From Candidatus Kapaibacterium sp. (lineage in GTDB: Bacteria; Bacteroidota; Ignavibacteria; Kapaibacteriales; UBA4661), in the NCBI GenBank assembly GCA_025055035.1, contig JANWZB010000004.1, forward strand, positions 1 to 58,829: a stretch of 58,829 nt of DNA, read 5' to 3'. The notes below the pieces were generated by a model. That model was not told where the DNA came from and ran no database searches. It was given only the letters and a program-made list of their open reading frames with translations. Position 1 is the first letter of the stretch; every line of letters begins with the position of its first letter. The translations under genes and the position numbers were made by a program. Positions 6,711 through 35,310 of this stretch are shown piece by piece.

Positions 6711-8564
6711 TTGCTGTTGTATATGTACATATCGTGCCGATTTTCCGCTTATCGAACACCGCGGCCTTTTCTTTCTGCTCTATACCGTACAGCACTCGCT
6801 TCTACATGGGCACTTATGCTCACAATGCTAACAGCGTGTCCACATCACGTCGAGCAGATGATAGAAAAACTGTCACCTCCTCCAGGTTATACACCAGCGT
6901 ACATGCGCTCCTCAACAACTTCCTTTAAAGAATTCATAGCACAATACAAGCAACTCTTGACAACAAGCGCTTCTCAGACCGTTCCTACTACACCGCACGA
7001 CATATTGACTACGCTACAGCTACCAAGCTCTGCAACATTATCCACCGTTGCGTACTCTACTTATCCTGATACTACCTTGCTCAGGAACTTCCCCATCACC
7101 TACCCATGCACTGTCGGTATTCCTTCATTTACACTTGACTCCGCTGATTATGATTCGGCTATTCTTGCTCGTGCAAGATTTCCCGATTCTCTGATACTTG
7201 CTGGAATGCATACCATCTCTCTCCCTATGCAGTATGCTGAACAAAATCCACACACTGAAGAATACGATAACTATGAGAACCTACTACCACATACACACAC
7301 AATGGGTACTCCTGTCGTTCTTCGGATTCACAGTATTGACGACACGCACTACCCTGCATACATTGAACTTCACACCACAGTAACCGACACAGCAGGACGC
7401 TTTATTTCTGGTCTTGCACCTCCAAATTTTCAGGGTACGGGAAGCTATCAATTATATTGGCGCACGCTTATAGATTCGTGTCCGGGAATGACAGCTCATA
7501 TAGCACGCGTTCGCGATGTTTTGGTTGAGGAAATACGAGAAAGCACACGCGATACCCACGCTATTGCTTTTGTTCTTGATCATTCGCCCTCTATGGGAGT
7601 AATACGCGCTGTGCGTTTACAAGAAGCAGTAGCACGAACACTAGGAATGATACAACCTCATGACTACGTTACCGCCATAAAGTTTACCTCGCGCATGCAC
7701 GTTGAAGTACCACTGACAAACGATTCAACAATATACCGTTCACAATTCATGATTAATGGTTTGCAAGGCTACGGTGGCGGAACAGCTATCTACGATGCGC
7801 TTCTTGAAGCTATGCGCGAACTACGCAAAGCATCAAGTACTGCGATCAAAGTGATTGTTCTCTTTACCGATGGCGCCGACAACAGGTCAAAATCTCGAAT
7901 ACACCAGGTGTACAGTGCAGCAAAAGAACAGAACATCCAAATTTATTCCATCGCCTACGGTGATACCGATGAGCGCCCTCTGCGTATGCTCGCCAAATAC
8001 ACTGGCGGCACAATGTATCGGTTGTATTCCACAAAAGAATTCCCTTTAGCGTTCGCCGATGTGTACAGGTCGCTCAAAAACTACTATCGTGTTCGGTATC
8101 ACCCGCCCCAGTGCGCATCTTTGCATACTGTACGCTTACATCTTGTACTGCCAGAAATTGCCAGCATTGCCAGCGATACAGCCCAGTACGATCGCTCAGT
8201 TTTTACTCCACTTGACACGGTTGGTTCAGTGCATCTTGCTCATATCGAGTTTGAAACAGGGAAAGCAGAGATTCGCCCTGAATCTCTCCCGATGCTCCGC
8301 GATATCGCAGATTACATGCAGCGCAATCCTCATACTGTTATGGAGATTCGAGGTCATACTGATAATCGAGGCACCCCAGAATTTAATCAGAAACTTTCTG
8401 AGCTACGCGCTACTGCCGTTCTGACGGCTCTTGTAGACATGAATGTTCCAAAAACACGTCTTCGTGCTGTGGGGTTTGGTGCAACACAGCCTCTTGTTCC
8501 AAACGATACAGAACAGAATCGCCAACGTAACCGTCGTACAGAATTTATTCTTGTCCAGAAGTAA
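6711..8564 (+). CDS. lipoprotein with a von Willebrand factor A domain and a C-terminal OmpA-like peptidoglycan-binding domain
   Basis: Lipobox-like MLTMLTAC. MIDAS-type DHSPSMG plus LFTDGADN. C-terminus FETGKAEIRPES...EIRGHTDNRGTPEFNQKLSELRA...NRRTEFILV is OmpA_C-like. The start could also be ATG 6723. Confidence 0.85.
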   Translation: MLLYMYISCRFSAYRTPRPFLSALYRTALASTWALMLTMLTACPHHVEQMIEKLSPPPGYTPAYMRSSTTSFKEFIAQYKQLLTTSASQTVPTTPHDILTTLQLPSSATLSTVAYSTYPDTTLLRNFPITYPCTVGIPSFTLDSADYDSAILARARFPDSLILAGMHTISLPMQYAEQNPHTEEYDNYENLLPHTHTMGTPVVLRIHSIDDTHYPAYIELHTTVTDTAGRFISGLAPPNFQGTGSYQLYWRTLIDSCPGMTAHIARVRDVLVEEIRESTRDTHAIAFVLDHSPSMGVIRAVRLQEAVARTLGMIQPHDYVTAIKFTSRMHVEVPLTNDSTIYRSQFMINGLQGYGGGTAIYDALLEAMRELRKASSTAIKVIVLFTDGADNRSKSRIHQVYSAAKEQNIQIYSIAYGDTDERPLRMLAKYTGGTMYRLYSTKEFPLAFADVYRSLKNYYRVRYHPPQCASLHTVRLHLVLPEIASIASDTAQYDRSVFTPLDTVGSVHLAHIEFETGKAEIRPESLPMLRDIADYMQRNPHTVMEIRGHTDNRGTPEFNQKLSELRATAVLTALVDMNVPKTRLRAVGFGATQPLVPNDTEQNRQRNRRTEFILVQK

Positions 8565-8567
8565 GTT

Positions 8568-9374
8568 ATGCAGCATACGCTACAACATAGTTTCTGCAGC
8601 ATCCTGTTGGTATCCTCCCTCGTTTGTTGCATTCCTCTGAATGCCCAAGACACGCATCTTTCTCCCCTGATTCTTGTAGCAACTAGTGGCACAGTAGGAT
8701 ATCCAACAGACCTTATTCTTCTTGCCCGACGCACCTCTTTATACGGACTTTTTAACCTCTCAGCACGCGATATCCGTATCGAAGGACAGTTATTTCTGCG
8801 CAATCCTACTGTCTTTTACCCAAAAGAATGGCTTGCTGCACCAAATACTACACTCTATGAACGTATACTGATACGACAGAATGATTCTACCTACACTGTT
8901 ATTCTCCGACTCCGCTGCACTGTAGCATCCGTAGGCTGTGATACTCTCGCACGACTGCGTGGTGATATTCTCGCTGCGTCGGATTCGGTATCAGAAATAC
9001 GTCTCACAAACCTTCTTCTCAGCGATAACCATGGACAACGCGTAATTCCTAGTACATCGGTTGTTCTCACTATCCGTTCAATTGGAGCACCTCTTCCTAT
9101 TATTCGTATTGCACAGCTTCATTATAACGCCCCTAACCCCTTCTCACGTATGGAAGGAACCTCATGGACGTACACCATCGATGAACCTTCCGACATTGAG
9201 TTTTCGATTTTCAATGCTTTTGGTCAGGAAATTGAGCGTATTGAACGGAAGAATCAGCCACGAGGCACGCATGTCGAAATCTGGAAACCTAAGGGCTGGA
9301 TTGCAAGTGGCGTCTACTATATTCGCTTTTCGAGTAGCACTGGAGCGCATTGGCGGCGCTGTATCGTGGAGTAG
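8568..9374 (+). CDS. secreted protein with a cohesin-like N-terminal domain and a T9SS type-A C-terminal sorting domain
   Basis: Signal peptide ILLVSSLVCCIPLNAQ. C-terminus NAPNPFSRMEGTSWTYTIDEPSDIEFSIFNAFGQEI...GVYYIRF matches the Por secretion tail pattern. Starts 3 nt after the previous stop. Confidence 0.75.
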   Translation: MQHTLQHSFCSILLVSSLVCCIPLNAQDTHLSPLILVATSGTVGYPTDLILLARRTSLYGLFNLSARDIRIEGQLFLRNPTVFYPKEWLAAPNTTLYERILIRQNDSTYTVILRLRCTVASVGCDTLARLRGDILAASDSVSEIRLTNLLLSDNHGQRVIPSTSVVLTIRSIGAPLPIIRIAQLHYNAPNPFSRMEGTSWTYTIDEPSDIEFSIFNAFGQEIERIERKNQPRGTHVEIWKPKGWIASGVYYIRFSSSTGAHWRRCIVE

Positions 9375-9378
9375 CGCT

Positions 9379-10530
9379 ATGCATCGCATCATTATACAAC
9401 GCACCCGTAGTCGTGGTATTCTACACTATCACACTATGTACCTCATCAGCATAACATTTGCTGTATGTGGTACAATGCACAGTACTGCACAAATAGCCAT
9501 TCCCTTGCCACCCCTGCCGGGTATGCAGATGAAATCAAAATCTGCTGCTGAGCTTCTTCAAGAAGAAGCAGAGAACTCACCTGCCAATAGCACTACTGCT
9601 CTCAATGACTTTTTACAATACTCCTCGCGCGGATGGTTTGCATGTCCTTTACCCGGCGTAAGCCTCTATGCAGTTAGCTCCGCAGCATTTCTTATCAACG
9701 ATGCTCATAACGTCACCTTTCCTGCTCTACCTCGTATAAACGGTCGCTTTTCAGCACAAAATCCCTACCCTGATAACGAATACCGTCGCCCTCTCCCGCC
9801 ACTGACGCATGGTAGCATAGATACAGTACGACGAGGTGAGTACTACGACTCCGAGTATGACGATATCATGCTATTATGCGAACTTGAGCTTCCACTACCA
9901 TTAATACTTCGCACAGGCATTGGCTATGCCTATCAGCGAGCTGTTCTCTTTGCCCAAGATCGTACATTCTATGGTCTTGCACCCGATCACTCAGGACGGC
10001 TGATTCCACTACGCGAGTATCACACGCTCGACATGCAAGAACATTACTTGCAAGGTATTCTAGGGTTCAAGATTCCATTCTATGGTGCATTCGCAGACCT
10101 TCTCGACCAACGCATTGGCTCGTACTACTATGTGTATTTCGGTGCTCATGCACAGTACAACGTCTTCAACCGTGCTGTACACCACGCACAACTTATCCAG
10201 CCCGGCATAGAATTCCGCTACGGAACACGCACAATCAACGTGGGCACTACAGGGCAAACTAAGCGCATAACCAATGGCACAGATACGCTGCAGCTATGGA
10301 ATGCACCAATGCCGTCTCTTCTACAATGGCGTCTGCAGCCCGAAGTAGCATTGGGATGGGGCTTGAATACCGATATCAGCATTCTTGAAGCAGAGTTTGG
10401 TGTAGCACTGCTCACTGAGATATTCGGCATCATTCCTGTCTATACTGTTACTAGCGACACCGAATGGCGGCAATATGTACTTGGCTTACGTATTGCTGTT
10501 GGCTGGCATCACGCGTTCCGGCAACGGTAG
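9379..10530 (+). CDS. hypothetical secreted/outer-membrane (beta-rich) protein
   Basis: ORF 9061..10530 trimmed to the first ATG after the upstream stop. Signal-like MYLISITFAVCGTMHSTAQ, with an alternative start at 9436. Aromatic-rich alternating segments. No family recognised. Confidence 0.55.
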   Translation: MHRIIIQRTRSRGILHYHTMYLISITFAVCGTMHSTAQIAIPLPPLPGMQMKSKSAAELLQEEAENSPANSTTALNDFLQYSSRGWFACPLPGVSLYAVSSAAFLINDAHNVTFPALPRINGRFSAQNPYPDNEYRRPLPPLTHGSIDTVRRGEYYDSEYDDIMLLCELELPLPLILRTGIGYAYQRAVLFAQDRTFYGLAPDHSGRLIPLREYHTLDMQEHYLQGILGFKIPFYGAFADLLDQRIGSYYYVYFGAHAQYNVFNRAVHHAQLIQPGIEFRYGTRTINVGTTGQTKRITNGTDTLQLWNAPMPSLLQWRLQPEVALGWGLNTDISILEAEFGVALLTEIFGIIPVYTVTSDTEWRQYVLGLRIAVGWHHAFRQR

Positions 10531-10628: not shown

Positions 10629-12005
10629 ATGCACACTACTCAGACAACTGCATCTCCACAATATCATTCCTCTTCATCTCAGCCTTCGCGTTCTATCAAC
10701 ACTGTCGCTGTCATCACACTGGGCTGCAGCAAAAATACAACAGATTCAGAAGTTCTGATGGGCATGATACAAGCTCACGGTATGAGTTTTGCCCCTGCAC
10801 GTGAAGCTGATGCTGTCATTATCAACACATGCGGGTTTATCGACCGAGCAAAAGAAGAAAGCATCGAAACAATTTTTGAGGCAATCCGCCAGAAAGAGGA
10901 GCTTGCTACTGAAGGTAAGAGCCAAACTCTTATTGTCGCTGGCTGCTTGTCGCAACGATATGGCGACGAACTGCGCAAGGAAATGCCGCAAGTAGATCAT
11001 TTCTTTGGAGAATCAGCATTCGAGCATATTGTCAAGGCTCTCACACCGAATTTTAAATATTCTCTTCTTGGCGAACGTGTGCTCACTACAGCCCCACACT
11101 ATGCCTATCTGAAAATTTCTGAAGGCTGCGATAATCCTTGCTCATTTTGCGCCATTCCACTCATTCGCGGTCGGCATCGCTCTCGCCCACCAGAACAGCT
11201 TGTAGAAGAAGCACAATTTCTCGTGGCAAGAGGTGTGAAAGAAATCATTCTCATTGCTCAGGATTCCACCGATTACGGACGCGACCTCACCGGTAAGCGC
11301 ACCCTTGCCGACTTATTGCAGCGCCTTTCCGATATTGATGGCATACAGTGGCTGCGGCTTATGTACGCTTTTCCGTCGAAGTTTCCACAAGATATTTTGC
11401 CTGTCATCGCAGAACGCCCCAATATTTGCAAGTACCTGGATATACCACTACAACACGCTTCTACACGTGTGCTCAAGTCTATGCGGCGCGGTATTACTCG
11501 CAGTACAACAGAGCGCCTTTTACAACATATCCGCGACACTGTGCCAGGAATAGCCCTGCGTACAACGTTTATTGTTGGATACCCAAGCGAAACAGAAGCA
11601 GATTTCCAAGAACTATGCGATTTCGTACGTGAACAGCAATTTGACCGTGTCGGTGTGTTCGAGTATTCACAGGAAGATGATACATATGCTTATATTCTTG
11701 GCGATCCCATTCCTGCAGATGTTAAGCGAGAACGTGCTGCCGAGCTTATGGCAATCCAGCGCACTATTTCTCTAGAAAAGAATGAGGCAAAGATTGGCTC
11801 ATGCCTCTCTGTTCTGATTGACCAAGTCCTGAGCAACGACGATGGAACGACTGAATATCAAGGTCGCTCCGAAGCCGATGCACCAGAAGTAGATAACGAA
11901 GTGTTTCTCACCTCTTCCCTGCCACTCCGCGTGGGCGAATTTGTTCAGGCAAAGATTTATGATGCTGCTGAATACGACCTCTTTGGCGAAGTACAGCTGC
12001 TGTAA
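10629..12005 (+). CDS. rimO: ribosomal protein S12 methylthiotransferase
   Basis: VAVITLGCSKNTTDSE (UPF0004), radical-SAM EGCDNPCSFCAIP, C-terminal TRAM-like region. ATG 10629 chosen; the ORF-track N-terminal extension was rejected. Confidence 0.9.
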   Translation: MHTTQTTASPQYHSSSSQPSRSINTVAVITLGCSKNTTDSEVLMGMIQAHGMSFAPAREADAVIINTCGFIDRAKEESIETIFEAIRQKEELATEGKSQTLIVAGCLSQRYGDELRKEMPQVDHFFGESAFEHIVKALTPNFKYSLLGERVLTTAPHYAYLKISEGCDNPCSFCAIPLIRGRHRSRPPEQLVEEAQFLVARGVKEIILIAQDSTDYGRDLTGKRTLADLLQRLSDIDGIQWLRLMYAFPSKFPQDILPVIAERPNICKYLDIPLQHASTRVLKSMRRGITRSTTERLLQHIRDTVPGIALRTTFIVGYPSETEADFQELCDFVREQQFDRVGVFEYSQEDDTYAYILGDPIPADVKRERAAELMAIQRTISLEKNEAKIGSCLSVLIDQVLSNDDGTTEYQGRSEADAPEVDNEVFLTSSLPLRVGEFVQAKIYDAAEYDLFGEVQLL

Positions 12006-12038
12006 GCTATCTGATACATAATATCCCCGCACCTTTAC

Positions 12039-12078
12039 ACAAACGCCACATTCATAGACTTCTGAATGCGGCGTTTGT
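12039..12078. terminator. 16-bp stem-loop between convergent rimO and the serpin gene
   Basis: acaaacgccacattca / tagacttc / tgaatgcggcgtttgt (one mismatch). No strong T-run on either side, so terminator function is uncertain. Confidence 0.5.
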
Positions 12079-12125
12079 ACTTAAGTTAAGAGGTATGAGT
12101 CGCACAGGAGCAAAGCGTTGCTCGA

Positions 12126-13391
12126 TTACGATGATGTTGGTTCGTACAATGCCCCCACAAAGAGTATCATACCGGTACTGCGCTCACGAATAAAAAAGGC
12201 AAAAGGTCGGTCAAAGCGTATGACAGGCTGTGGTGCTACAGACGTTACCCGAATACCAACTGCTGTAGCTGCTGCTGCTTCCGTTCCGCGCTCATCTACT
12301 TGAAGAAATGTCTGATGAACCACAAAGCTAATAGCAGCTTGCACGGGCGGACGATACATTGCCGAGAAGTCTGCAGCACCCGAAAATGCAAGTCCCATAC
12401 CTAGCGCGTGAAGCTCACGCCGTGTTGTTCTTGTTTCTTCGTAGCGGGTCTGTAGCGAAAACTTTGGCAGCGCTAGTAGTGTCGATGTTGTTGTCATACT
12501 TTGTATTGCTTGGTTAAGGCTTGCTGGACTCAGCTGAGCAATCACACGGCTTAAGCGTTCGCCTTCATGTGGCAGAAGAAGTGTCATAGCAAACTGCCCA
12601 CCGCTGTAAGGCAACTCCACAAGACGTGCTTGCCCAAGACTCGCCACGCGTACATCTATCGGTTTCGAGAGATTCATCATCGCACACACAAGCGATGAGC
12701 CGTCTTCACGGCGAAATGGTTCATTCTGTGTGTCCTCCTGACGGAACTGCGTTTTCCAGACTGCATTGAAGTACACAGCATTTACAAGACACATAAGATC
12801 GTCGGCTGTAAAATTGCGCTGAATCAAATTCTTAATACGATTATTAGTTTGCTGCTCCACCCAACGGTTAATATCACCCTTGACATCAGCACTACCGAAT
12901 GCCATTCCGCGCAGTTCTGCACCGAATGACTGCCGTACAGCCGACAAAAATGCCTGCTCGACAGTAAAACGCTGATTATACCAAATCCCATTGGCAATCC
13001 GTATTTCAACGCTTTTGTCTAACCCCAAAAGATACTCCCTGAGTGTGCGCGAAGCTTCGTTGATATCATTGATAGGAATCCCGCTGAGCTGAAGCGCTCG
13101 CATAATGGAATCACGCGTAGCTCCAGCTGCACCATTGGCAGTCATGGTAAGAGCTTGCATGTAGCTCAGAGGTGAAAGAAAGATGTTCTTGCTTCCCTCA
13201 ATGCGACTCGTTTCTTGAAATAGCCGCACAGCAAATGTATTATTCGCTACGGCAACCTTGTGCTCACGCTCTGTAAGCGCACGCACCTGTCCTGATGATG
13301 GGTCTATTGGTGGCGTCGTACACGCTATTGCATAGCCGCTGATGGCAACAATCCACCAGATACCTAGATTGCGAGAAACGTTCATATGCAC
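12126..13391 (-). CDS. serpin-family protease inhibitor, lipoprotein-type signal
   Basis: N-terminus IWWIVAISGYAIAC. Hinge/RCL ERGTEAAAATAVGIRVTSVAPQ followed by FDRPFAFFIRE...ILFVGALYEP. Shutter and breach regions are recognisable along the whole length. Confidence 0.9.
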   Translation of the reverse strand: MHMNVSRNLGIWWIVAISGYAIACTTPPIDPSSGQVRALTEREHKVAVANNTFAVRLFQETSRIEGSKNIFLSPLSYMQALTMTANGAAGATRDSIMRALQLSGIPINDINEASRTLREYLLGLDKSVEIRIANGIWYNQRFTVEQAFLSAVRQSFGAELRGMAFGSADVKGDINRWVEQQTNNRIKNLIQRNFTADDLMCLVNAVYFNAVWKTQFRQEDTQNEPFRREDGSSLVCAMMNLSKPIDVRVASLGQARLVELPYSGGQFAMTLLLPHEGERLSRVIAQLSPASLNQAIQSMTTTSTLLALPKFSLQTRYEETRTTRRELHALGMGLAFSGAADFSAMYRPPVQAAISFVVHQTFLQVDERGTEAAAATAVGIRVTSVAPQPVIRFDRPFAFFIRERSTGMILFVGALYEPTSS

Positions 13392-13433
13392 ATCCTTTTG
13401 AACAATGAAACATATGCACTTGCGGTTATGTAC

Positions 13434-14810
13434 TCAAAACTTTATTCCCACACCCAGACTCAGACCTAGGCGTGGGACTACATTCCATACACCAAGTACA
13501 GAGCTTGCTACTACTGCGGCTTCTCCCGCCACGATGACCGAATACTGCTCTCTTGCTAAGAACCGTGCACCCAGCATTGTTCTGCCCACAGCGCCAAGCT
13601 CTCCTCCACCTATTGTCAGACGAAGAAGTGGTCGCACTCCTCCCAGCATATCAATTTCATCGGCACCATACTGATACACTATACCAGCCCACACGCGATT
13701 ACTCGCAACACGCCTTACTGGAGCGTCCTGTGTCTCGCGCAATACTGATGAATTGCTCGATACAGAAGAACCCTGAACCATTGACGCACTGCTGCTAGAT
13801 GGTACAGCCGCCGCCCGCATAGTATTTGGCTCGGCATCAGAAGGAATAGAATGAGAATTCAGATTTTGAATCTGCGCTATCAAGAAGGGGTCTGTACCAC
13901 CCTCTATACCGATACCGTGATGCTGATCTAGCGCATAGTACAGACCGACCACAAGGTTATACGGTGAAGTTGCAGTATAGCCTCCATCTGGACTATCGAG
14001 AACACGCAAGTCAGTGCGAGCAGCTATACGTGCTTCTGCAGAAAGATGCTGCCACACGCTCCAGTTGTTAGATGGTTCTTCAGAGGCCTGCTTTCTACTA
14101 ATTGCTGTATACACATCTGCGGTACTTTCATGATAACGAGATTTTATATCATCACGAATAGCATTTTGCCGCATCACACTGTGCTTGCCATATTCATCAT
14201 ACTGTGCTTGTAGTGTAGTTTTGCCTTCGTTCTCTCGAGCAACAGTATTTTTCACGGTGTGCTCTGTTTGAGCACTATGGGGCGATACATCCGAGTCGGC
14301 AGAAATAAAAGTATTCCACAGGGGATGCTCTACACGCACCTGCTGGATATGAGCATCATGCGCTACGCTTCTTTTCTGCGGCACACTATATTCCAGTATT
14401 TGTGTACGAGCGATTCTACTATTGCTATAATGCGTTCGTTGCTCCTGTTCCTCTGCAAGAAAACGCGGCAACGCTTGCTCACCAAGCATTATAGGGAAAG
14501 TAGCAAGGATACCGATAATCCCACTGGCTAACACAGCAGCATGATAGCTCACCGAAAGATGTGGTAATGACCATGACCACACACGATAATTTTTGAAGAT
14601 AGCAGCGCTATGTGCTCCAGCGCTTGCTGCAGTGTATAGTGAGATTTTTGAAAATGCCCAAAGCTGCTCTAGCAGTGCTCGTATGAACGATAGCTGTTCT
14701 TGCCGAGCAATAGTAGAAATATACGCTGCGCTTTCTTCAAATGATACAACAGGTGCTTCATCGCGCGCTGCTCGGAAGAGTTCATCGAGAGTTGGTCGTT
14801 GCTTATGCAT
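13434..14810 (-). CDS. membrane protein in the anti-sigma position (no zf-HC2 motif); beta-rich C-terminus
   Basis: ATG lies 11 nt after the ECF sigma stop. Hydrophobic segment HAAVLASGIIGILATFPIMLG. Ser-rich linker. C-terminus ...VVPRLGLSLGVGIKF ends in Phe like an OM barrel. Confidence 0.55.
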   Translation of the reverse strand: MHKQRPTLDELFRAARDEAPVVSFEESAAYISTIARQEQLSFIRALLEQLWAFSKISLYTAASAGAHSAAIFKNYRVWSWSLPHLSVSYHAAVLASGIIGILATFPIMLGEQALPRFLAEEQEQRTHYSNSRIARTQILEYSVPQKRSVAHDAHIQQVRVEHPLWNTFISADSDVSPHSAQTEHTVKNTVARENEGKTTLQAQYDEYGKHSVMRQNAIRDDIKSRYHESTADVYTAISRKQASEEPSNNWSVWQHLSAEARIAARTDLRVLDSPDGGYTATSPYNLVVGLYYALDQHHGIGIEGGTDPFLIAQIQNLNSHSIPSDAEPNTMRAAAVPSSSSASMVQGSSVSSNSSVLRETQDAPVRRVASNRVWAGIVYQYGADEIDMLGGVRPLLRLTIGGGELGAVGRTMLGARFLAREQYSVIVAGEAAVVASSVLGVWNVVPRLGLSLGVGIKF

Positions 14811-14821
14811 AGTTTGTGTTC

Positions 14822-15508
14822 CTACGCTGAATATTTCTTGAGCACAGAAACAGTCCGGTGCTCCGATACTTGCGTTAGATGATGAATTGTTGCGCGGTGC
14901 TCTGAATCCAGAGATTCAGCTATCATAGCCCGCAGAGCCTCACGGGCGCGAACAAGACGCATTTTTACCGCAGAAAGTGAACCACCTTGAATTTCTTGAA
15001 TTTCGCGTATCGAAAATCCCGAAATTTCGAACAACGTCAATGCCTCTCGGTGCTTATGCGGTAGGCGTTGCAAAGCATCGTACAGTACTTGCGTATCATA
15101 CAATGTATCAGCATTAGAGGCAGCAGACTGCTCAAGAACTACTTTCTGGTGCTGCATGAGCGGATTCAAACGCTCAAATATACGCTCTCGCCAGCGACGG
15201 CGCTTTGCTAAGCGGCTAGCTATCGTTAACAGCCAACATACAAATGCTGCTTCGTTGCGCAAGGTATGAAAATGCTTGAAAGCTTGCTCAAGAGTATCAC
15301 TCACTAAATCTCGCGCATCGTCTGCCGTTCGTGTCATAGCCCGTGCAAACCGTGCAAGCTTGTCATGATGCGGCTTCAGCAACGCAAGAAAACGCTCTTG
15401 CTTGCTTTGAATCTCCGTCATCTCGTTGCAAAGCGGTATTACAGCATTTGATTCCACCATATTATCCAACACAAAAATTACGCGCTCTTCGAGAGTAAAG
15501 AGGCACAC
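14822..15508 (-). CDS. ECF-type RNA polymerase sigma-70 factor
   Basis: Region 2 DARDLVSDTLEQAFKHF. Region 4 REALTLFEISGFSIREIQEIQGGSLSAVKMRLVRAREAL. The true start is probably an internal ATG at 15460 or 15421. Confidence 0.88.
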   Translation of the reverse strand: MCLFTLEERVIFVLDNMVESNAVIPLCNEMTEIQSKQERFLALLKPHHDKLARFARAMTRTADDARDLVSDTLEQAFKHFHTLRNEAAFVCWLLTIASRLAKRRRWRERIFERLNPLMQHQKVVLEQSAASNADTLYDTQVLYDALQRLPHKHREALTLFEISGFSIREIQEIQGGSLSAVKMRLVRAREALRAMIAESLDSEHRATIHHLTQVSEHRTVSVLKKYSA

Positions 15509-15546
15509 AGTACCAAAAAGTCACATATCTTCCACTCACACCTCCA

Positions 15547-15747
15547 TCAGCAAGTTCTCAGCAGTAGGTTTTCCGACAGAGTGTTCCTTGCTAATATAAG
15601 GTCTAGTATAGAGGCATTCTCCAGTTTGCGTACTTGCGCAGATACGCTCTCCTTAGTAAGTTTAATGAGTTGCAAATGCACTTCTATGCTATTTTTATCC
15701 CTATACCCTAAGGATGAAACAGCGCTGTAGCGCTGTACCATATCCAT
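15547..15747 (-). pseudogene. possible relic of a LysR-type HTH N-terminus (66 aa only)
   Basis: KLTKESVSAQVRKLENASILDLILARNTLSENLLL resembles the LysR wHTH consensus (SQxAVSxQIxxLExxLGxxLFxR...LTxxG). There is no co-inducer domain downstream. Confidence 0.3.
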
Positions 15748-15785
15748 ATCTAGACCCCTATACTCACTGGGAAGGATTATCCACT

Positions 15786-16604
15786 ATGCACTTTTGGCAA
15801 AAATACTATAGCGGTCGCTCAAACAAAAACTCTGCACTATGTATTGGCTTGGATGTTTCGCTTGAATATATTCCGCAGCATTTGCTCAGCATGGGTACTA
15901 CTAGAGCAATCACAGAATTTAATCGCCGTATTATTGATGCCACACGCGACTACGCTATCGCCTATAAAATCAACCTCGCGTTTTATGAGCAGTATGGAAT
16001 TGAAGGCTGGCACGCTTTCGAGCAAACACGAGCAGCTATTCCCTCTGATTGCATCGTTATTGCTGATGCTAAACGCGCTGATATCGGCAATACCTCGAAA
16101 GCATATGCTACAGCATTCTTCGAACACTACACTTGTGACGCACTAACAGTTGCCCCGTATATGGGGCGAGATTCTATTGAACCGTTCTTGTCGTATGAAG
16201 GGCGCATGACGTTTGTACTGGCACTTACCTCTAATCCGGGCTCACAGGATTTCCAGCGGCTAGTTGTTGGCACAACACCACTCTACCGCGCTGTAATGGA
16301 CTCTACTCTCACCTGGGTGCATACATCACAAAGGCAGAATCTCGGATTTGTTGTTGGAGCAACACATCCTGAAGAACTTGCAGAACTGCGGACATACTAC
16401 CCTCACACGATGTTTCTCATTCCCGGCATTGGTGCACAAGGCGGGCAGCTCCAAACAGCGCTGCAAGCAAATGCCAACGCACCAGCGCTCTTCACTATCT
16501 CACGAGCGATACTCTATGCCTCATCTTCCGATGATTTTGATGATGCAGCACGCCGTGCTACACTCGCATTTGTAGAAAATATGCGGAATGTGCATATTGC
16601 ATAG
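15786..16604 (+). CDS. pyrF: orotidine-5'-phosphate decarboxylase (type 2)
   Basis: ALCIGLDVSLEYIP, AYKINLAFYEQYG, IADAKRADIGNTS, ALTVAPYMGRDS. ATG 15786 chosen. Confidence 0.88.
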   Translation: MHFWQKYYSGRSNKNSALCIGLDVSLEYIPQHLLSMGTTRAITEFNRRIIDATRDYAIAYKINLAFYEQYGIEGWHAFEQTRAAIPSDCIVIADAKRADIGNTSKAYATAFFEHYTCDALTVAPYMGRDSIEPFLSYEGRMTFVLALTSNPGSQDFQRLVVGTTPLYRAVMDSTLTWVHTSQRQNLGFVVGATHPEELAELRTYYPHTMFLIPGIGAQGGQLQTALQANANAPALFTISRAILYASSSDDFDDAARRATLAFVENMRNVHIA

Positions 16605-29001: not shown

Positions 29002-29817
29002 TTAGCGTAAGCGTTGTTCAAGTATGCGCTCCACTTCAATCCGCACAGCACGCTGAATTTCCTCACGGCGGAGCTGATTTGTTGCCTCAACCAGCGCTTG
29101 AACATTTGCATGAAAGGCTTGAAGCGCAAGATTAGTCTGACGTATTGTCTCAATAAACTCTGGTTGTGGAGTACTTGCAAGCGACACTGCACGAGCGACG
29201 TCGTTCACCGCTCCTAACAGCTCATCTTGACGAGCAACAATATCGGAAAGCGCTGCCGTCACCGCCTCGAGTCGTGTTCCTGCGCTTGCATAATCTGTAG
29301 CAATATCGCCAATTTCACTAATCAGTTCTCGCATCTCGTCAGTCTCGTTTCGCTCCTCTTCCCCTTCATCATCCAACGGCGAAAAAAACATCACGACAAA
29401 TAAGACAAATAGCATACACGCTTCGATTCCGACCCCAGCAATCACCATACGAACATCGATGCGATCAGTAAAGCGGTATCCACTGACGACAACAAGAAGA
29501 ATGGCTGCACCTAAATATACGAGGGAGTTAATAGTTGAGAAATAAAACCGATTAACAACTTCCTGTAACCACAGCGATGTACCCCGCAATATGCCTAGAG
29601 CGTGAATTACTGTTACCTGCTGCTTGCTATATCGGTACACTTCGCGTTCAAATGTACATAAGCGCCAGCATGTAACAAGCGTTGTTATGCTACTTACCTG
29701 CCTCTCATAGCGTAGCTCTCGAACAATATCGCGGAGTATCGCACGACCACGAAGTGTAGAGAGCGTTTGAACATGTTCCATACACGCGCACCATATCTTG
29801 AATACTTTGTTGTGCAA
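29002..29817 (-). CDS. hypothetical two-TM membrane protein with an acidic patch and a C-terminal coiled coil (GldL/PorL-like architecture, speculative)
   Basis: TM pair LVYLGAAILLVVVSGY and MVIAGVGIEACMLFVLFVVMFF with an intramembrane Glu, then DDEGEEERNETDE, then helical repeats (VTAALSDIV...LQAFHANVQALVEATNQL). Confidence 0.5.
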   Translation of the reverse strand: MHNKVFKIWCACMEHVQTLSTLRGRAILRDIVRELRYERQVSSITTLVTCWRLCTFEREVYRYSKQQVTVIHALGILRGTSLWLQEVVNRFYFSTINSLVYLGAAILLVVVSGYRFTDRIDVRMVIAGVGIEACMLFVLFVVMFFSPLDDEGEEERNETDEMRELISEIGDIATDYASAGTRLEAVTAALSDIVARQDELLGAVNDVARAVSLASTPQPEFIETIRQTNLALQAFHANVQALVEATNQLRREEIQRAVRIEVERILEQRLR

Positions 29818-30021
29818 CTGTGCATAAAAATACGGGTGAAAACCACGTCATGCAAGAGCGAAATTGTGGACACAATAGCAACAGCAACGCGGTGCGGGTA
29901 CCATCACACTACAACGGTTCTTTGCAATAGCACTGCTACATACTTGGTTTTCATTCGGCACAGTAGTATCTTACGTTGTTTCGACGTATTTCCCCACCTG
30001 TTCTTTTTCTTTGCGCATGCT

Positions 30022-33000
30022 ATGCATAAACACTGCACTACTTCTTCTATATTCGTTACTTCTATGACAAATTGTGCCCTAGTGGCAATAGCAGTGTGTT
30101 GGTCGATACTGCACTCTCAGGTTATTCCCCCATCACCCAAAATGATTAAAGACAGTAAAGGCAAAGACTTCTGGCTTGGCTTCCCACGCAATCACCATCA
30201 AACGAATATCAATCTCGACCGCCTGTATATCAGCATCGCAGCAGAACGCCCAACACGCGGCACTATTACCTTTTGGCAATATGGAAACAAACGCACAGAG
30301 ACTTTTACTGTTGCTGCACAAGATATCTACACTTTAGAACTGCCGGTGCAAGGTCTAGAAATCGAGGGGAACACTATCGCACGTCGCAGCTTTCACATTA
30401 CTACTGACGAAGAGGTTTCTGTGTATGGGTTAAGCGTTGCCAACACAACAAGCGATGCTTTTCTTGCTTTTCCTACCGATGTTTTGGGGCGCGAATACGT
30501 TATTACCTCATACCCCAGCAACCTTGTTTTTCAAGGGCGATTTGTAAACACAGTCGTATCCACAATGTCGCAGTTTGCTGTGCTCGCTGTAGAGGACAGT
30601 ACTGTTGTACATATTTTCCCCACAGCACGCGTCTGGGACAAAGCATCTATCGAGCCGTTTACTCTCACACTCAATCAAGGCGAAACGTACCTTATATCGA
30701 ACTCTCTCGAAGCAGAGAATGCTCAACTGGACTATACTGGATCGCGGATTCTCTCCTCGAAGCCACTTGTTGTCTATGCTGGGCATGAGCGTGCCGCAAT
30801 ACCGATTGGCGTCGGAACATCGCGAGACTACCTGATTGAGCAGATGCTTCCCGTTGAAGTCTGGGGAAAAACAGCTCTTGTAGTGCCCTATCCAACACCT
30901 ACTCTCGGCACTGCTGATTTTGGCTGCGATAGAATCCGTGTTGTTGCCGCATATGATAATACTGTTGTCTCGGTTAATGGTGCTACAGTTGCAACACTGC
31001 GGGCGGGAACATTCTACGAAATGATCATTTCGACGGAAGCTTCTATCGCTACTTCGGAGCCAAGCATGATAGCAGGATACAAGTGCAGTAGTGCAGGAGT
31101 GCGTGCTAATATCAGTATTGGCGACCCTTTTCTTGCAGTGATACCACCTGTCGAACAGTATCTCAATCGTTACCGTTTTACCTGTGTCCAAGGGGTACAG
31201 GTTGCACAAAATGCTTTGAATCGCTTCGAACCTGCCTTTCAAGAACACTACGTTACCATTATTGTCCCCTCCACCAGAGCAACGACAGTTACCCTCGACG
31301 GTCGCACACTTCCTCCCCAAAGCTTCAAGCGCATTAGTCATTCTGAGTACTCCTACAGCACTATCCCAATTAGCGAGGGAACGCATAGCATCACTGCCGA
31401 TACGACGTTTGGCATCACTGTTGCCGGGTATGGCAGAGCGAACTCCTATGGATACATCGGCGGACAACGCTTCGAGACAGACATTCGTCCTCCACAGATT
31501 GTCGTCCAGCGCACATGTACGGGAATTCGGGGCATGATATACGACAGCACCTATACAGACTCCAAGATTTTCTTTTACGATACACTCTGGTCTGCACAGC
31601 GCAATATTGCCTTTCGCTTTGGCACACTTCCTCGCCCTGCTGATTCTCTAGCATTTCATGCTGACTTGCTCAATCCTTTTGAAGATGGCACACTGGGGAT
31701 TGTTGCTGTCGATTCGCTCGACTTGCGTACTGTGCAGCGCATTACTGTTCCAGGCTTTACTGTGCATCGCGACCCGACAGTACGCACTCGCAGCGTTGGC
31801 AGTGCTCGTAGTGTTCTACGCCTTGCTACCGGACGCGAATACTGCTTTCGGCTTCTAGTAACAAACTATGGCTCAACACACCAAACAATTCAGCATGTAA
31901 GCTTTGCTCAGGGACGACGCGAGTTCTCTGCACGCATGCAGCAACCTCTGCACATCGAGCCAAGCTCGCAAGGCACTATTGAGTATTGCTTTCGTACCGA
32001 TGAAGACGGTGTATTCATTGATACGCTGGTGATTTCTAATGGCTGCATCACGCGTCCAATTCTTGCGCTTTACATCGAAGCCGCTGCTGACCGCTTTCCT
32101 CCAACGGTGGCACTTACGAGCGATTCGTGCAATCGCACTGTTGTTCTCGAAACTTCAGACAATCGCACGTTTGATTCTGGTATAGAAAGCATTGAGATAT
32201 CGCTCTCAAATTTCCGAGCACAGCAAAGCTTTATTGGTGTAGCAGCACTTGTACCTGACAGCACAAAGCGTCCTATACGCCTTGTACTAACTGTTGTCAA
32301 TCCTCGTGCTGATGCAGTCTATCACATACGCATTCGCGACTCTGTGGGTAATATTGTTGTTCTGCGCGACACAATACGTGGCTTTACGCTGCGTTTTCTT
32401 ACACATCCCGACACAAGTTCAGGTGTCCTACAACCATACGTCTCGGATACCCCCGAATACACGCAGCATACGTACCGCTTTGCTGCTACAGAAGCATCAT
32501 CGCTCACGTGTGCAACTCTCTATGCACGGAATACAGGGATTGCTCCATTCGTACTCGACTATCCATACATCCATCACAATACTGTATTTTCACTGCCGCT
32601 GTCGCAATTTCCACTTATCATACCTCCCGGCGAAATGCGACTGCTTCGAATATGCTTTCAGCCGCCTCTTGTTGCGTTGTATCGGGACACCATAGCTATA
32701 ACGCGCTTCTGCATTACTGAGCGCATTGCACTGAGCGGCGAGGGACTAAGCACAGGGCGTTTTGCAGGAACACGTTGTGATATTACTGCTCGCCTTACAC
32801 CGCGCTACGGTAGCACGACAATCCATGCTTCCCGGCATTCATCAGGCTTGCGTGTATCTGTATTCCCTACTCCGGCTCATAACCACCTCACACTGCGCAT
32901 TGATACCGAAGAAGAGCAGGATCTTGCTGTGCGGCTTATTTCTCTGCTCGGTACAACTGTTGCTTCTATGCCTTCCCAACGCTTCAGTGCGGGAACATGG

Positions 33001-33111
33001 GAGCTGACTCTTCATTTTGTCGGTATTGATTCTGGGGCATACTATTGCGAAGTGGAATCTCACACACCGAGCATCCAGCGCTGGACAAGACTTGTACATA
33101 TCGTACGCTAG
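30022..33111 (+). CDS. large secreted protein: IgGFc-binding-protein-N-terminal-like domain, Ig-like middle, T9SS type-A CTD
   Basis: Signal MTNCALVAIAVCWSILHSQ. GKDFWLGFPRNHH...LYISIAAERPTRGTITF...VSVYGLS...DAFLAFPTDVLGREYVI...GDPFLAVIPPVEQY...TVAGYGRANSYGYIGG. C-terminus VSVFPTPAHNHLTLRI...SGAYYCEV. An alternative start is at 30064. Confidence 0.75.
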   Translation: MHKHCTTSSIFVTSMTNCALVAIAVCWSILHSQVIPPSPKMIKDSKGKDFWLGFPRNHHQTNINLDRLYISIAAERPTRGTITFWQYGNKRTETFTVAAQDIYTLELPVQGLEIEGNTIARRSFHITTDEEVSVYGLSVANTTSDAFLAFPTDVLGREYVITSYPSNLVFQGRFVNTVVSTMSQFAVLAVEDSTVVHIFPTARVWDKASIEPFTLTLNQGETYLISNSLEAENAQLDYTGSRILSSKPLVVYAGHERAAIPIGVGTSRDYLIEQMLPVEVWGKTALVVPYPTPTLGTADFGCDRIRVVAAYDNTVVSVNGATVATLRAGTFYEMIISTEASIATSEPSMIAGYKCSSAGVRANISIGDPFLAVIPPVEQYLNRYRFTCVQGVQVAQNALNRFEPAFQEHYVTIIVPSTRATTVTLDGRTLPPQSFKRISHSEYSYSTIPISEGTHSITADTTFGITVAGYGRANSYGYIGGQRFETDIRPPQIVVQRTCTGIRGMIYDSTYTDSKIFFYDTLWSAQRNIAFRFGTLPRPADSLAFHADLLNPFEDGTLGIVAVDSLDLRTVQRITVPGFTVHRDPTVRTRSVGSARSVLRLATGREYCFRLLVTNYGSTHQTIQHVSFAQGRREFSARMQQPLHIEPSSQGTIEYCFRTDEDGVFIDTLVISNGCITRPILALYIEAAADRFPPTVALTSDSCNRTVVLETSDNRTFDSGIESIEISLSNFRAQQSFIGVAALVPDSTKRPIRLVLTVVNPRADAVYHIRIRDSVGNIVVLRDTIRGFTLRFLTHPDTSSGVLQPYVSDTPEYTQHTYRFAATEASSLTCATLYARNTGIAPFVLDYPYIHHNTVFSLPLSQFPLIIPPGEMRLLRICFQPPLVALYRDTIAITRFCITERIALSGEGLSTGRFAGTRCDITARLTPRYGSTTIHASRHSSGLRVSVFPTPAHNHLTLRIDTEEEQDLAVRLISLLGTTVASMPSQRFSAGTWELTLHFVGIDSGAYYCEVESHTPSIQRWTRLVHIVR

Positions 33112-33264
33112 CCTACCCATAATAGAAATGCAATGCTCTCGGTATCGCACTCCAGACTATGCGATTGTACTGTTAATTACATTTTCTAAATGGGGTTCTG
33201 GAAGAAGCCATTCCCACGAATAACCCGATACCATCGCCCTTGACATTCCATGCAGGGTTTGCCA

Positions 33265-33525
33265 TCATCCTGCTTTCAGCAAAATTCTGACAACACTTTG
33301 TAGACAGCAGATAATCGCGGCTCTACGCGCAGATGCTATCCATAAGAGAAATTCCGCTAGAGAAATATGTCCACGTACTCCTATGCTTGTGACAAGCTCT
33401 GGTGTAATGCTCCGCTCATCTTAGCTATAGAATGATGCTTCTAGCGCCGATGCAACCTCACCATCGCTTGCAAGCGTGAGCATAGGAAGATTCCGTAATT
33501 GCAAGACTGCTACATATAAGTTTTA
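33265..33525 (-). pseudogene. relic of the C-terminal half of a response-regulator receiver domain, interrupted by an in-frame TAA
   Basis: Hand translation: VAVLQLRNLPMLTLASDGEVASALEASFYS*DERSITPELVTSIGVRG... Compare the receiver consensus LPvimLTA.ge....al.aGAddYl.KPf.p.EL. TAA at 33421-33423. No N-terminal half is present. Confidence 0.35.
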
Positions 33526-33580
33526 TATCTTAGTAGCAAGCACTTATTTAATCCACACTGTTACATAATCTACACTGTCG

Positions 33581-34348
33581 TTACAGTCCCACCTTAAGCA
33601 TTGCAACCGCGCCAATAACCCTACCTTGGCTTGGTGGAACAATACTCAGTGGGACTGTGCGAAGAAGACCTTCACCCGCAAACTGCCAGAAGAGTAGATG
33701 AGCATAGCCACGAAATGCTACATCTATACTACGGCTTATTTGAAAACTATACTCCAGCTGCATCTTAGCACCAAGCGAACAAACACCATACATGTAATCG
33801 ATAACATCCCTCATCAACGGCTCCACACCAATCAACGACCCCATGCCATTAATAAATACCTGCATGCTTGGTCCTACTCCTAGTGTTATACTGTTCATGC
33901 TCTGCTGTACTAGCGACCAATTTACTAGAACATCAAACAATGAGGCTGTATATAGTATCTTGTTTTGGAATGGCTTCCTATTCCATCGGATAAGTGGCGA
34001 GTATACCCCAAAAAAGATATGGCTGCCTCCAAGGACACATTTTCCGACATAAAATACTGATACGATGCAGTTACTGAAGAAATTACCCTATCATAAGATA
34101 TTACATCGCTAAGAGCTGTACCTATCCCAGAGCTCATTCTATGCTGAGTGTAATGACTACTATCACTGCTTGATACTGTATCTGCTCGCTCCTGAGAAAA
34201 TACATACATGTAGTCCATGACAAGAGAACAGAGAACGCCTCTACCAGTTTTACTAACGTACTATGTCGCATAGAATACTATGTCGCATAGAAATTGCTAA
34301 AATATACGTAGTAGATGCTAGCCAGTATGACCATGCAAATGGTTTCAT
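33581..34348 (-). pseudogene. outer-membrane beta-barrel-like gene disrupted by a 34-bp tandem insert and a homopolymer frameshift
   Basis: ATG 34348 (MKPFAWSYWLASTTYILAI...) runs into a stop inside the 2x17-bp repeat. ORFs 33925..34218 and 33581..33940 are consecutive frames of one alternating-hydrophobic protein. See findings for the frame arithmetic. Confidence 0.45.
34259..34292. repeat. perfect 17-bp tandem duplication (tactatgtcgcatagaa x2)
   Basis: 34259-34275 is identical to 34276-34292. Each unit contains the mini-palindrome ctatg-tcg-catag. Confidence 0.95.
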
Positions 34349-34467
34349 AAGAATGGTAGTACCAAATTAAGATTTAGGGAATACAGGGGTCTCTCTTCTC
34401 TTCACACACAACGAGGAGAAACTCCTGAAGAATTTATTGAATTGTAATCCAATAGTTTGCTTCTACA

Positions 34468-35265
34468 TTACCAGCGTGCACCGCATGATGCTGTGAGCAT
34501 ATGGACGACATAATATGTAGCTGAAAGAGGATGCATTCCCAAAAAGTCATCAAACATGTCTTTTCCTACAAATGCATTGTCCTCCCACCAATCAACTTTG
34601 CACTCGGCATGAGCGTTGATACCATCCCCTAAATCACCAACGGGAAAACTAGGAAAGGCTCCTGTATAAGGATAAAAACTCCCCGTGGGAATATTTCCCA
34701 AATGTATATCAGCCCAAAACTGATAGTATCCGGTATTATACCCTGTCCGATAAATGAAGAAATCACAGAAAAACTCACTCGTTCCATCCCATGGGAACTC
34801 ATCAAACTTCCATTTATCCTCAATCTTTATGTTGATAAACTAAACTCGCATGTACGGTAGCGTTAAACTTAGCAAGCTATTATTCTTCAGCAACACGCTA
34901 CTAGAGTGCTCCTGTACAAGCTGAGCACTAGTAATAAGACCTACCCGTAATGAATCATCGATATTTGCACGCTCGTTGAAGGTAATAACAATGACAGGAC
35001 GTTTTTGAGCAATAGTTGCATACTCATCAACAATGTAGCTGTTACCACCGCTATCAAAAGCAGTAATATTTGTCTGTGCGGCAACTCTAGCAAAAAACTC
35101 TCGCTCTTCTTGACTCATCATACTCGATATCCCCTTCGTTCCTATTGCCGATACACTACGCGCTTGCTCCTCCGTAGGCACATATCCAACACTATCCTCA
35201 ATCCCCCAGACCATACTGCTACACCCCACTCCTGCTATACGTCTTGTGAAGAAACTCTGCTGCAC
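34468..35265 (-). pseudogene. 264-codon reading frame split by a single in-frame TAG (141-aa + 123-aa halves); unknown function
   Basis: ORF 34840..35265 (GTG start) ends in TAG at 34840-34842. The same frame continues without a stop as FINIKIEDKWKFDEFPWDGTSEFF...HLGNIPTGSF... into ORF 34468..34701. Verified codon by codon. Confidence 0.45.
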
Positions 35266-35285
35266 ATATTCCAGAATCTTTTCAT

Positions 35286-35310
35286 GCTACGTACTAGCTA
35301 CGTACTAGCT
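35286..35310. repeat. 11-bp tandem repeat gctacgtacta x2.3 in the intergenic region
   Basis: 35286-35296 equals 35297-35307, followed by a partial third copy gct. It lies 21 nt upstream of the GTG start at 35265 (minus strand). Confidence 0.9.

Follow-up and report, generated by a model that had tools for sequence, protein, structure and literature searches.

The window analyzed here, that is, the whole of a 58,829-nucleotide stretch of contig JANWZB010000004.1 from a Candidatus Kapaibacterium sp., contains on its minus strand three consecutive open reading frames (ORFs) that are the subject of this report. They encode a putative extracytoplasmic function (ECF) sigma factor (14822-15508), a protein of 458 amino acids called gene 2 that is a candidate anti-sigma factor (13434-14810), and a serpin (12126-13391), with gaps of 11 nt and then 42 nt between them. 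This layout agrees with a first-pass annotation of the same DNA, which had described three co-directional minus-strand genes at those spacings. The trio recurs, behind a conserved promoter-like motif, in related genomes, which are metagenome-assembled genomes labeled Candidatus Kapaibacterium or Ignavibacteria; NCBI places Kapaibacterium in the Bacteroidota.

The 42-nt spacer that separates gene 2 from the serpin gene is unstructured (z = +0.4), and a consensus scan of the minus strand found no terminator-like site between the three genes. A 17-bp hairpin lies 3' of the serpin gene (12038..12079, minus strand), with a minimum free energy of -35.3 kcal/mol and z = -5.9, both computed on a 96-nt stretch containing it. 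Transcription of the unit likely stops at this hairpin, which would also serve the convergent rimO/miaB-like gene on its other side.

The sigma factor ORF matched the Pfam families Sigma70_r2 (E = 5e-10) and Sigma70_r4_2 (E = 7e-12), as expected from the earlier description of an ECF sigma factor with regions 2 and 4, and region 3 was absent. Since it carries these two domains and nothing else, the first gene is, on its domain content, an ECF sigma factor. The features of an ECF (group 4) sigma factor were all found, namely, regions 2 and 4 only, a length of 199 amino acids, and a conserved motif upstream of its own gene, the promoter activity of that motif being predicted. The closest solved relatives were SigH, SigE, and AlgU-type ECF sigma factors. 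The protein fell under the cutoff of every NCBIfam model, the best matches being PRK12517 at 80 bits and sigma_PG0214 at 72 bits, both far below. The ORF as listed has 228 amino acids and reaches a GTG at 15508, which was rejected as the start. The orthologs are 198 to 206 amino acids long, align from residue 31 of the ORF, and begin near the ATG at 15421, and the GTG lies inside the conserved promoter-like motif. For these reasons, the most likely start is ATG 15421, and the gene is given here as 14822..15421 on the minus strand. After region 4, a tail of about 25 to 40 amino acids holds the sequence (A)TIHHL(T), which is kept in nearly all clades compared. The copy in the window, ATIHHLT, was recognized by sequence conservation (14873-14893, minus strand) and may be an extra regulatory element.

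A promoter-like motif and a probable small regulon

Upstream of the sigma factor gene lies a bipartite motif consisting of a -35-like element, TGTGACTTTTT, a spacer of 13 nt, and a -10-like box, TCTTAC. It was found upstream of the sigma operon in 15 of the 15 distinct loci compared, 64 to 103 nt before the start codon, with the -10-like variants TCTTCC, TCCTAC, and ACTTAC and, in the window, TCTTTAC. The upstream regions of these loci share almost nothing else, the spacing is fixed, and the motif is retained where the sigma factors are only 39 to 54% identical and the flanks otherwise unalignable. A position weight matrix (PWM) applied to both strands of about 295 kb separated the sites cleanly: true sites scored 32.8 or more, no background site exceeded 13.7, and held-out sites scored like those used in training. 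The window contains one exact match, on the minus strand at 15495..15525, which we consider a candidate ECF-type autoregulatory promoter, and the only genes locally behind it are those for the sigma factor, gene 2, and the serpin.

Autoregulation had been proposed in the first-pass annotation from a GGAAC element at 15574-15578. The proposal itself is supported by the conserved motif at 15495-15525, but the element named for it is not conserved. GGAAC is actually found on the minus strand at 15583-15587, so the position was off by 9 nt, and it was rejected as a -35 element because there are 86 copies in the window against about 71 expected and none is conserved in any orthologous upstream region. 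The search of upstream regions for a promoter pair, with comparison of orthologous loci, that had been suggested at the same time was productive, though the pair that emerged is the bipartite motif and not GGAAC.

The only extra motif sites in the scan were second perfect copies before a gene for a lipoprotein-like protein of 145 amino acids, a few kilobases downstream of the serpin gene at two related loci (motif at L001:13717-13752 with the gene at 13815-14252, and motif at L005:9982-10017 with the gene at 10080-10517). The signal of this protein ends in LLFSC, it has no Pfam match, and the gene is not present in the window; it is likely a second member of the regulon. Because the motif also stands before this separate gene, it is best read from its distribution as the mark of a small regulon and not as mere inherited sequence. 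Within the window, a weak look-alike on the minus strand at about 34550 (PWM score, 5.2) has no clear ORF behind it and was rejected as a regulon member. The surrounding region, 33100-35300, contains short, broken minus-strand ORFs (97 and 119 amino acids) that resemble fragments of barrel strands and may be a decayed outer-membrane protein gene.

Two further features were seen upstream of the sigma factor gene at other loci. In Kapaibacterium-like loci, the sigma promoter is preceded by a conserved box (AATCGCTATTCACCGCATTTTTG) with a lone TTCACC in it, and this box is absent from the window. Histidine kinase genes are also found upstream of the sigma factor gene, immediately adjacent in L020 and L010 and about 3 kb off, beyond two genes, in L019.

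Conservation of the gene trio

In each of the 14 distinct loci where a serpin of 47% identity or higher was present and the sequence extended far enough, the sigma factor gene, a gene 2 homolog, and the serpin gene stood together, and these loci span at least five flanking contexts. One group, comprising the window and L001, L003, L005, L007, L008, L009, L016, and L017, has a shared upstream flank and differing downstream flanks; within it, identities are 69 to 73% for the serpin, about 63% for the sigma factor, and about 32% for gene 2. The trio also occurs, with unrelated flanks, in L019 and L020, both with tandem serpins, and in L011, L013, and L021. The order of the sigma factor gene and gene 2 is identical in all 15 loci. 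Where genes are directly adjacent, the gap between gene 2 and the serpin gene is 42 to 57 nt in 9 of 11 loci, with 116 nt in L019 and 208 nt in L005. The spacer in L005 (4966-5173), to be compared with the usual 44 to 57 nt, owes its length to an inserted element with paired CACAGAC...GTCTGTG hairpins, resembling a small repeat or miniature inverted-repeat transposable element.

A search from the serpin side gave the same picture. All three serpins that were looked up at 47 to 57% identity lay behind the sigma factor-gene 2 pair, each in a new flanking context, and neither of two serpins, at 44% and 37% identity, was accompanied by it. The serpins form a clear clade at 47% identity or higher, with orthologs 47 to 73% identical to the window serpin, and the phylogenomic linkage of serpin and ECF pair that the first-pass annotation had offered as a check is present in every member examined with enough sequence. 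On the basis of these gene orders, the linkage appears strong and specific to one serpin clade, and it is not absolute. In L011, L013, and L021, an opposite-strand NYN_YacP gene is located between gene 2 and the serpin gene, accompanied in L021 by a small cytochrome-like gene. Searches by regular expression and PWM in the window, L011, L013, and L021 found no sigma-dependent promoter directly before the serpin gene, and from this arrangement the serpin in the three interrupted loci must use another promoter. In L018, the pair is followed by a gene for 198 amino acids, with no serpin within 8 kb. The description of the serpin as the dedicated output of the ECF module therefore holds where co-transcription is possible, and it does not extend to these four loci.

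The three interrupted loci, in which the serpin lies behind an opposite-strand gene and the sigma motif is missing, raise the question of whether there is any regulatory link at all. If the serpin had its own promoter and its adjacency were only inherited gene order, such loci would be expected; all the loci possibly come from one fairly narrow lineage, and the 42-nt gap might hold a promoter of an unrecognized type. Against this, the genes have stayed neighbors in no fewer than five flanking contexts and down to identities of 47% for the serpin and 39% for the sigma factor, and the gaps are short and free of terminators, the only strong hairpin following the serpin. We regard the absence of a link as distinctly improbable.

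The NYN_YacP loci also have TTCACC-like direct repeats, about 11 bp apart, preceding the serpin gene (L011:8320-8345; L021:6413-6433 and 6957-6990; L013:3215-3270). These could be a binding site of the response regulator type and are at present putative. S41 peptidase genes occur near L001, L005, and L021, and their linkage was rejected as part of the locus, as there is none in the window.

The genes flanking the trio in the window are both housekeeping genes, pyrF divergent on the upstream side and the gene for a radical-SAM methylthiotransferase convergent on the downstream side. An Rfam scan of 11900-15800 gave no family match. Farther away, a plus-strand gene at 29767-33111 encodes a protein of 1,114 amino acids with an IgGFc_binding domain and a weak match, below the cutoff, to Por_Secre_tail, a type IX secretion sorting domain (E = 4e-5). 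A protein of 268 amino acids (8568-9374, plus strand) has a similar C-terminal end and a weak FlgD_ig match. It is probable that this organism uses a type IX system to secrete surface proteins.

Gene 2 and the serpin

Gene 2 gave no match in Pfam or NCBIfam. It lacks a zf-HC2 domain, as the first-pass annotation had noted, and no solved homolog was found by sequence. Its structure was predicted with AlphaFold2 from a 20-sequence alignment. The N-terminal region, residues 1 to 60 (14631..14810, minus strand), is helical, with helices at 8-17 and 24-66 (predicted local distance difference test [pLDDT] of about 67). It contains the motif LDxLxxAARxExPVVSFEE, in which L8, A15, R16, P20, V21, S23, F24, and E26 are among the residues that are invariant or nearly so in the 20 sequences, and it is presumed to be the cytoplasmic, sigma-binding part. 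A single inner-membrane helix is predicted at residues 88 to 110 (14481..14549, minus strand), where the 19-residue segment with the highest Kyte-Doolittle value starts at residue 91 and AlphaFold2 places a helix at 87-109; this is the hydrophobic anchor recognized earlier. Residues 111 to 249 (14064..14480, minus strand) form a low-complexity region, presumed to cross the periplasm, that is mostly of low confidence and partly disordered, with pLDDT below 50 at 134-211 and 224-246 and low-confidence helices at 113-139 and 201-243. Among orthologs, this middle part is barely alignable and varies in length, and the conserved parts are the N-terminal ~55 and the C-terminal ~200 amino acids.

The C-terminal part, residues 250 to 458 (13437..14063, minus strand), is predicted to be an eight-stranded outer-membrane beta-barrel, with strands at 256-267, 285-293, 298-307, 372-382, 392-403, 406-417, 423-438, and 441-457 and pLDDT values of 80 to 94. 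The top Foldseek matches were all outer-membrane barrels, including NspA, the OmpA transmembrane domain, AlkL, Ail, OmpX, OmpW, and OprF-N; most are small eight-stranded barrels, and a designed eight-strand barrel was among them (TMt 0.70). Seven of the eight strands show an alternating hydrophobic-polar pattern, and the C terminus, G-V-G-I-K-F (G-x-x-I-K-F), resembles the beta-signal of the barrel assembly machinery. The barrel-like ending proposed from the sequence thus agrees with the model. The Ser-rich linker proposed with it does not, because the model places the Ser-rich stretch (residues about 337 to 356) between barrel strands 3 and 4. There, residues 308 to 371 (13698..13889, minus strand) form a long, Ser-rich, disordered loop (pLDDT below 50 for 318-366) that varies in length and sequence among orthologs and that, by the usual topology of such barrels, would face outward.

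Only six other clusters at 90% identity matched gene 2 in an index of 5.8 billion proteins, and an exhaustive profile search of 1.84 billion representatives returned about 20 full-length and about 130 barrel-only relatives. The latter are about 130 clusters at 50% identity, with lengths of 400 to 560 amino acids (P0024-P0155). In this wider family, an N terminus resembling RseA_N or zf-HC2 is joined, through a membrane helix and a variable linker, to the same barrel at the C terminus, again without a Pfam barrel match. Many of the N termini are of the YVDGELD type, and among 60 members, 11 matched RseA_N and 11 matched zf-HC2, in both cases weakly. The barrel of the wider family aligned with that of gene 2 at 99.9% probability in hhalign, but its connection between strands 3 and 4 is short, with no counterpart of the long loop. 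The one member whose location was looked up (L010:5408-7302) sits directly after an ECF sigma factor gene. Since a homologous barrel occurs in RseA_N/zf-HC2-like proteins, one of them placed after an ECF sigma factor gene, the comparison supports the gene 2 barrel as a sensor module of anti-sigma factors. A profile search with the wider barrel family in a word-indexed database brought back only two members of the query, and a metagenome scan gave only four loci.

The arrangement of gene 2 has a known parallel in the Dma family of anti-sigma factors described in Bacteroides by Pardue et al. in 2024 (PMC10927553). Residues 1 to 40 of Dma1 bind the sigma factor Das1, and beyond this segment the architecture comprises a membrane helix, then a disordered region, and finally an outer-membrane barrel of eight strands; fragments from proteolysis have been seen, and the barrel fragment of Dma1 reaches outer-membrane vesicles (PMC10927553). 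Gene 2 likewise follows an ECF sigma factor gene in the same direction, with an 11-nt gap after the sigma stop codon, and likewise has a single inner-membrane helix, a long disordered region with low-confidence helices within it, and a predicted eight-strand outer-membrane barrel ending in F. Both systems belong to the phylum Bacteroidota, to which the Dma family is restricted, and each pair has a further gene next to it, for the lipoprotein NigD2 in the one and for the putative lipoprotein serpin in the other. The sigma factors paired with Dma proteins are of group ECF21. They differ in that gene 2 has a 64-residue disordered insertion between strands 3 and 4 and in the linked output, which is NigD-like proteins and vesiculation genes for Dma and a serpin here. 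Dma1 is annotated with the Pfam family OMP_b-brl_2, but none of the Pfam barrel models recognizes gene 2 or its relatives: OMP_b-brl_2 gave no hit, even at E values up to 10, with gene 2 itself, with ten relatives and 60 wider-family members, or with the barrel alone, and one wider-family fragment matched OMP_b-brl weakly and below the cutoff (E = 2e-4). Because it lacks the OMP_b-brl_2 match of Dma1, gene 2 is, on present sequence comparisons, a protein of Dma-like architecture from a separate sequence family.

In light of this architecture, and of a barrel homologous to that of RseA_N/zf-HC2-like proteins beside ECF sigma factor genes, gene 2 is very probably an anti-sigma factor. It had been called an atypical partner in the first-pass annotation, which is not supported, since the type is by now known as Dma (PMC10927553). 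The structure prediction recommended there did return N-terminal helices, a membrane helix, and a barrel; the N terminus, on the other hand, matched no known anti-sigma domain model.

The serpin gene (12126..13391, minus strand) encodes 419 to 421 amino acids, starting at GTG 13391 or ATG 13385. The protein matched PF00079 with E = 6e-100 over profile positions 2 to 370 of 370, so the earlier call of a full-length serpin stands, and its closest solved relative is the miropin of Tannerella forsythia (5NCS; E = 1e-72 over serpin residues 49 to 417). The inhibitory-type hinge also noted before, ERGTEAAAAT, is present, and the hinge segment DERGTEAAAAT is invariant in 15 of the 15 serpins compared. 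The reactive-center loop comprises residues 367 to 390, ERGTEAAAATAVGIRVTSVAPQPV (12222..12293, minus strand), as judged from the miropin loop alignment and clade comparison. In the alignment to miropin, the predicted P1 residue is V382 or T383, and across the 15 serpins the two residues before a conserved T-S vary, the first being R, G, or E and the second V, T, L, or A. From these features, the serpin is predicted to be of the inhibitory type. The tandem serpins at L019:7001-9703 and L020:7001-9687 have the same hinge and differing loops (ELTSAPP versus IRTTAIE and GLTSAPP versus VEKTSIG), which suggests a diversified target specificity.

The serpin begins with a hydrophobic signal ending in YAIAC, with Cys24 at 13320-13322, followed by a Thr/Pro-rich tether. 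What is conserved at the end of the signal is Cys and then TTP. The lipobox read there by the first-pass annotation is only lipobox-like, being noncanonical both here (AIAC) and in the orthologs (VLWSC). A surface-tethered inhibitor, also proposed, is not predicted. By the rule quoted in the literature, an acidic cluster after the Cys marks surface-exported Bacteroides lipoproteins; no such motif is found in the sequence after the serpin Cys, so surface exposure is not to be assumed and the protein may face the periplasm. Miropin has the same hinge, a similar loop length, and a similar ...T-S... core, and both are serpins of Bacteroidota; miropin also has a lipoprotein signal, where that of the window serpin is lipoprotein-like. 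Miropin has been shown to be surface exposed, whereas the window serpin is known here from its sequence. Miropin would fall in the range of 37 to 44% identity, in which serpins occur without the pair, and the literature searched reported no sigma/anti-sigma neighbor or regulator for it.

A periplasm-facing serpin would permit a homeostatic loop, in which it inhibits a DegS/HtrA-like S1 protease making the first cut in gene 2 and the sigma factor thereby switches itself off. The preferences of the HtrA family resemble the predicted serpin P1 region; DegS, for example, cuts RseA at Val-Ser. That region consists of small aliphatic or hydroxyl residues (V/T/L/A and then T-S), the acidic surface-export motif after the lipobox Cys is lacking, and modulators are commonly co-transcribed with sigma/anti-sigma pairs, all of which speak for such a loop. 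It would sit poorly, however, with the facts that the locus has no linked gene for a site-1 protease, the S41 peptidases near L001 and L021 being absent from the window, and that miropin, the closest characterized serpin, is surface exposed and acts on foreign proteases. The tandem serpins of L019 and L020, with their differing loops, likewise fit diverse external targets better. We give this loop little credence.

A proposed envelope circuit

The reading that we favor, though tentatively and at somewhat less than an even chance, is an autoregulated three-gene operon with a Dma-type anti-sigma factor, a serpin as its output, and a proteolytic trigger. Transcription would start at 15495-15525, run through the sigma factor gene, gene 2, and the serpin gene, and end at the hairpin at 12038-12079. 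The N-terminal 55 to 60 residues of gene 2 would hold the sigma factor at the inner membrane, the disordered region would cross the periplasm, and the barrel would reside in the outer membrane with the Ser-rich loop directed outward. Regulated proteolysis of gene 2, as proposed for Dma1, would free the sigma factor, which would raise transcription of the operon and hence the level of a lipid-anchored, miropin-like serpin. The trigger would most likely be damage by proteases to those parts of gene 2 that are exposed or lie in the periplasm, such that an inhibitor as output answers the input. Given an output that inhibits proteases and a sensor with a long, disordered outward loop and a long periplasmic linker, proteolytic attack is the most economical candidate for the signal.

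Several points weigh against this reading. Co-transcription of the three genes is inferred from their spacing, and a protease as the signal, while plausible, is likewise our inference; the signals of the characterized Dma proteins are still unknown (PMC10927553). The -10-like box in the window has one T more than the consensus. To these are added the N terminus of gene 2 with its lack of a domain match, the missing export motif of the serpin, the NYN_YacP loci with their separate serpin promoter, and the L018 pair.

Some of the same evidence would fit a general outer-membrane stress module similar to sigma-E/RseA, with the serpin as one effector that limits collateral envelope proteolysis. The Dma-type factor would then report any disturbance of the outer membrane or of barrel assembly, and proteases would not be its specific signal. 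The regulons of Dma1 and Dma2 have to do with vesiculation and glycan use and not proteases, an unrelated 145-residue lipoprotein belongs to the regulon in L001 and L005, and in L018 the pair does without a serpin. However, the linkage has been kept by every clade serpin examined through several rearrangements, which is tighter than expected for one of many effectors, and the long, variable outward loop is particular to the gene 2 subfamily. A general stress module is unlikely in our view but deserves serious consideration.

The proteolytic circuit favored above can also be put in a bolder form, with gene 2 as an envelope-spanning protease bait. A foreign protease would cut the Ser-rich loop or destabilize the barrel, the linker would undergo regulated intramembrane proteolysis, and the sigma factor would be released; a membrane-anchored serpin with a fast-changing P1 region would then track the attackers. 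We consider this rather unlikely. If true, a signal would have been identified for a Dma-type anti-sigma factor for the first time, and no earlier ECF circuit would be known to sense a protease and answer with its inhibitor.

Induction of a countermeasure by the attacking enzyme itself is known from sigma-V/RsiV, which responds to lysozyme, and from the Rcs-induced inhibitors Ivy and MliC. The logic proposed here would be alike, but the sensor proteins are unrelated and the parallel is functional only. We know of no protease-driven countermeasure circuit that acts via an ECF sigma factor. In bifidobacteria, which have no outer membrane, a bacterial serpin also appears to be under dedicated envelope signaling, with proteases as inducers there and proposed as such here; the signaling device differs, being, as far as a study title indicates, a two-component system there and here, in a diderm, an ECF sigma factor plus an envelope-spanning anti-sigma factor. 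Bifidobacterial serpins are induced by proteases (PMC8201313), and a 2012 study, by its title, ascribes expression of the Bifidobacterium breve serpin to a two-component system (reference 138 in PMC8201313). The view of the first-pass annotation that the regulation of bacterial serpins is essentially undescribed thus cannot be maintained. For Gram-negative serpins, miropin included, no transcriptional control was reported in the literature searched, nor was any report found that links a serpin to an ECF or anti-sigma module; serpins do not come up in the main text of the ECF reclassification paper.

Each component is of a known type, be it the ECF sigma factor, the Dma-type anti-sigma factor, or the miropin-like serpin; what sets the locus apart is the conserved coupling to a serpin, the new barrel family, and the defined promoter motif. 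The barrel, present in about 150 clusters at 50% identity, would represent a large unannotated family of anti-sigma factors that is invisible to Pfam. A Dma-like family tied by gene order to a protease inhibitor gives rise to a testable hypothesis, namely, that the input is proteolytic attack on the envelope, and the locus would provide the first candidate regulator, together with a defined promoter motif, for Gram-negative serpins.

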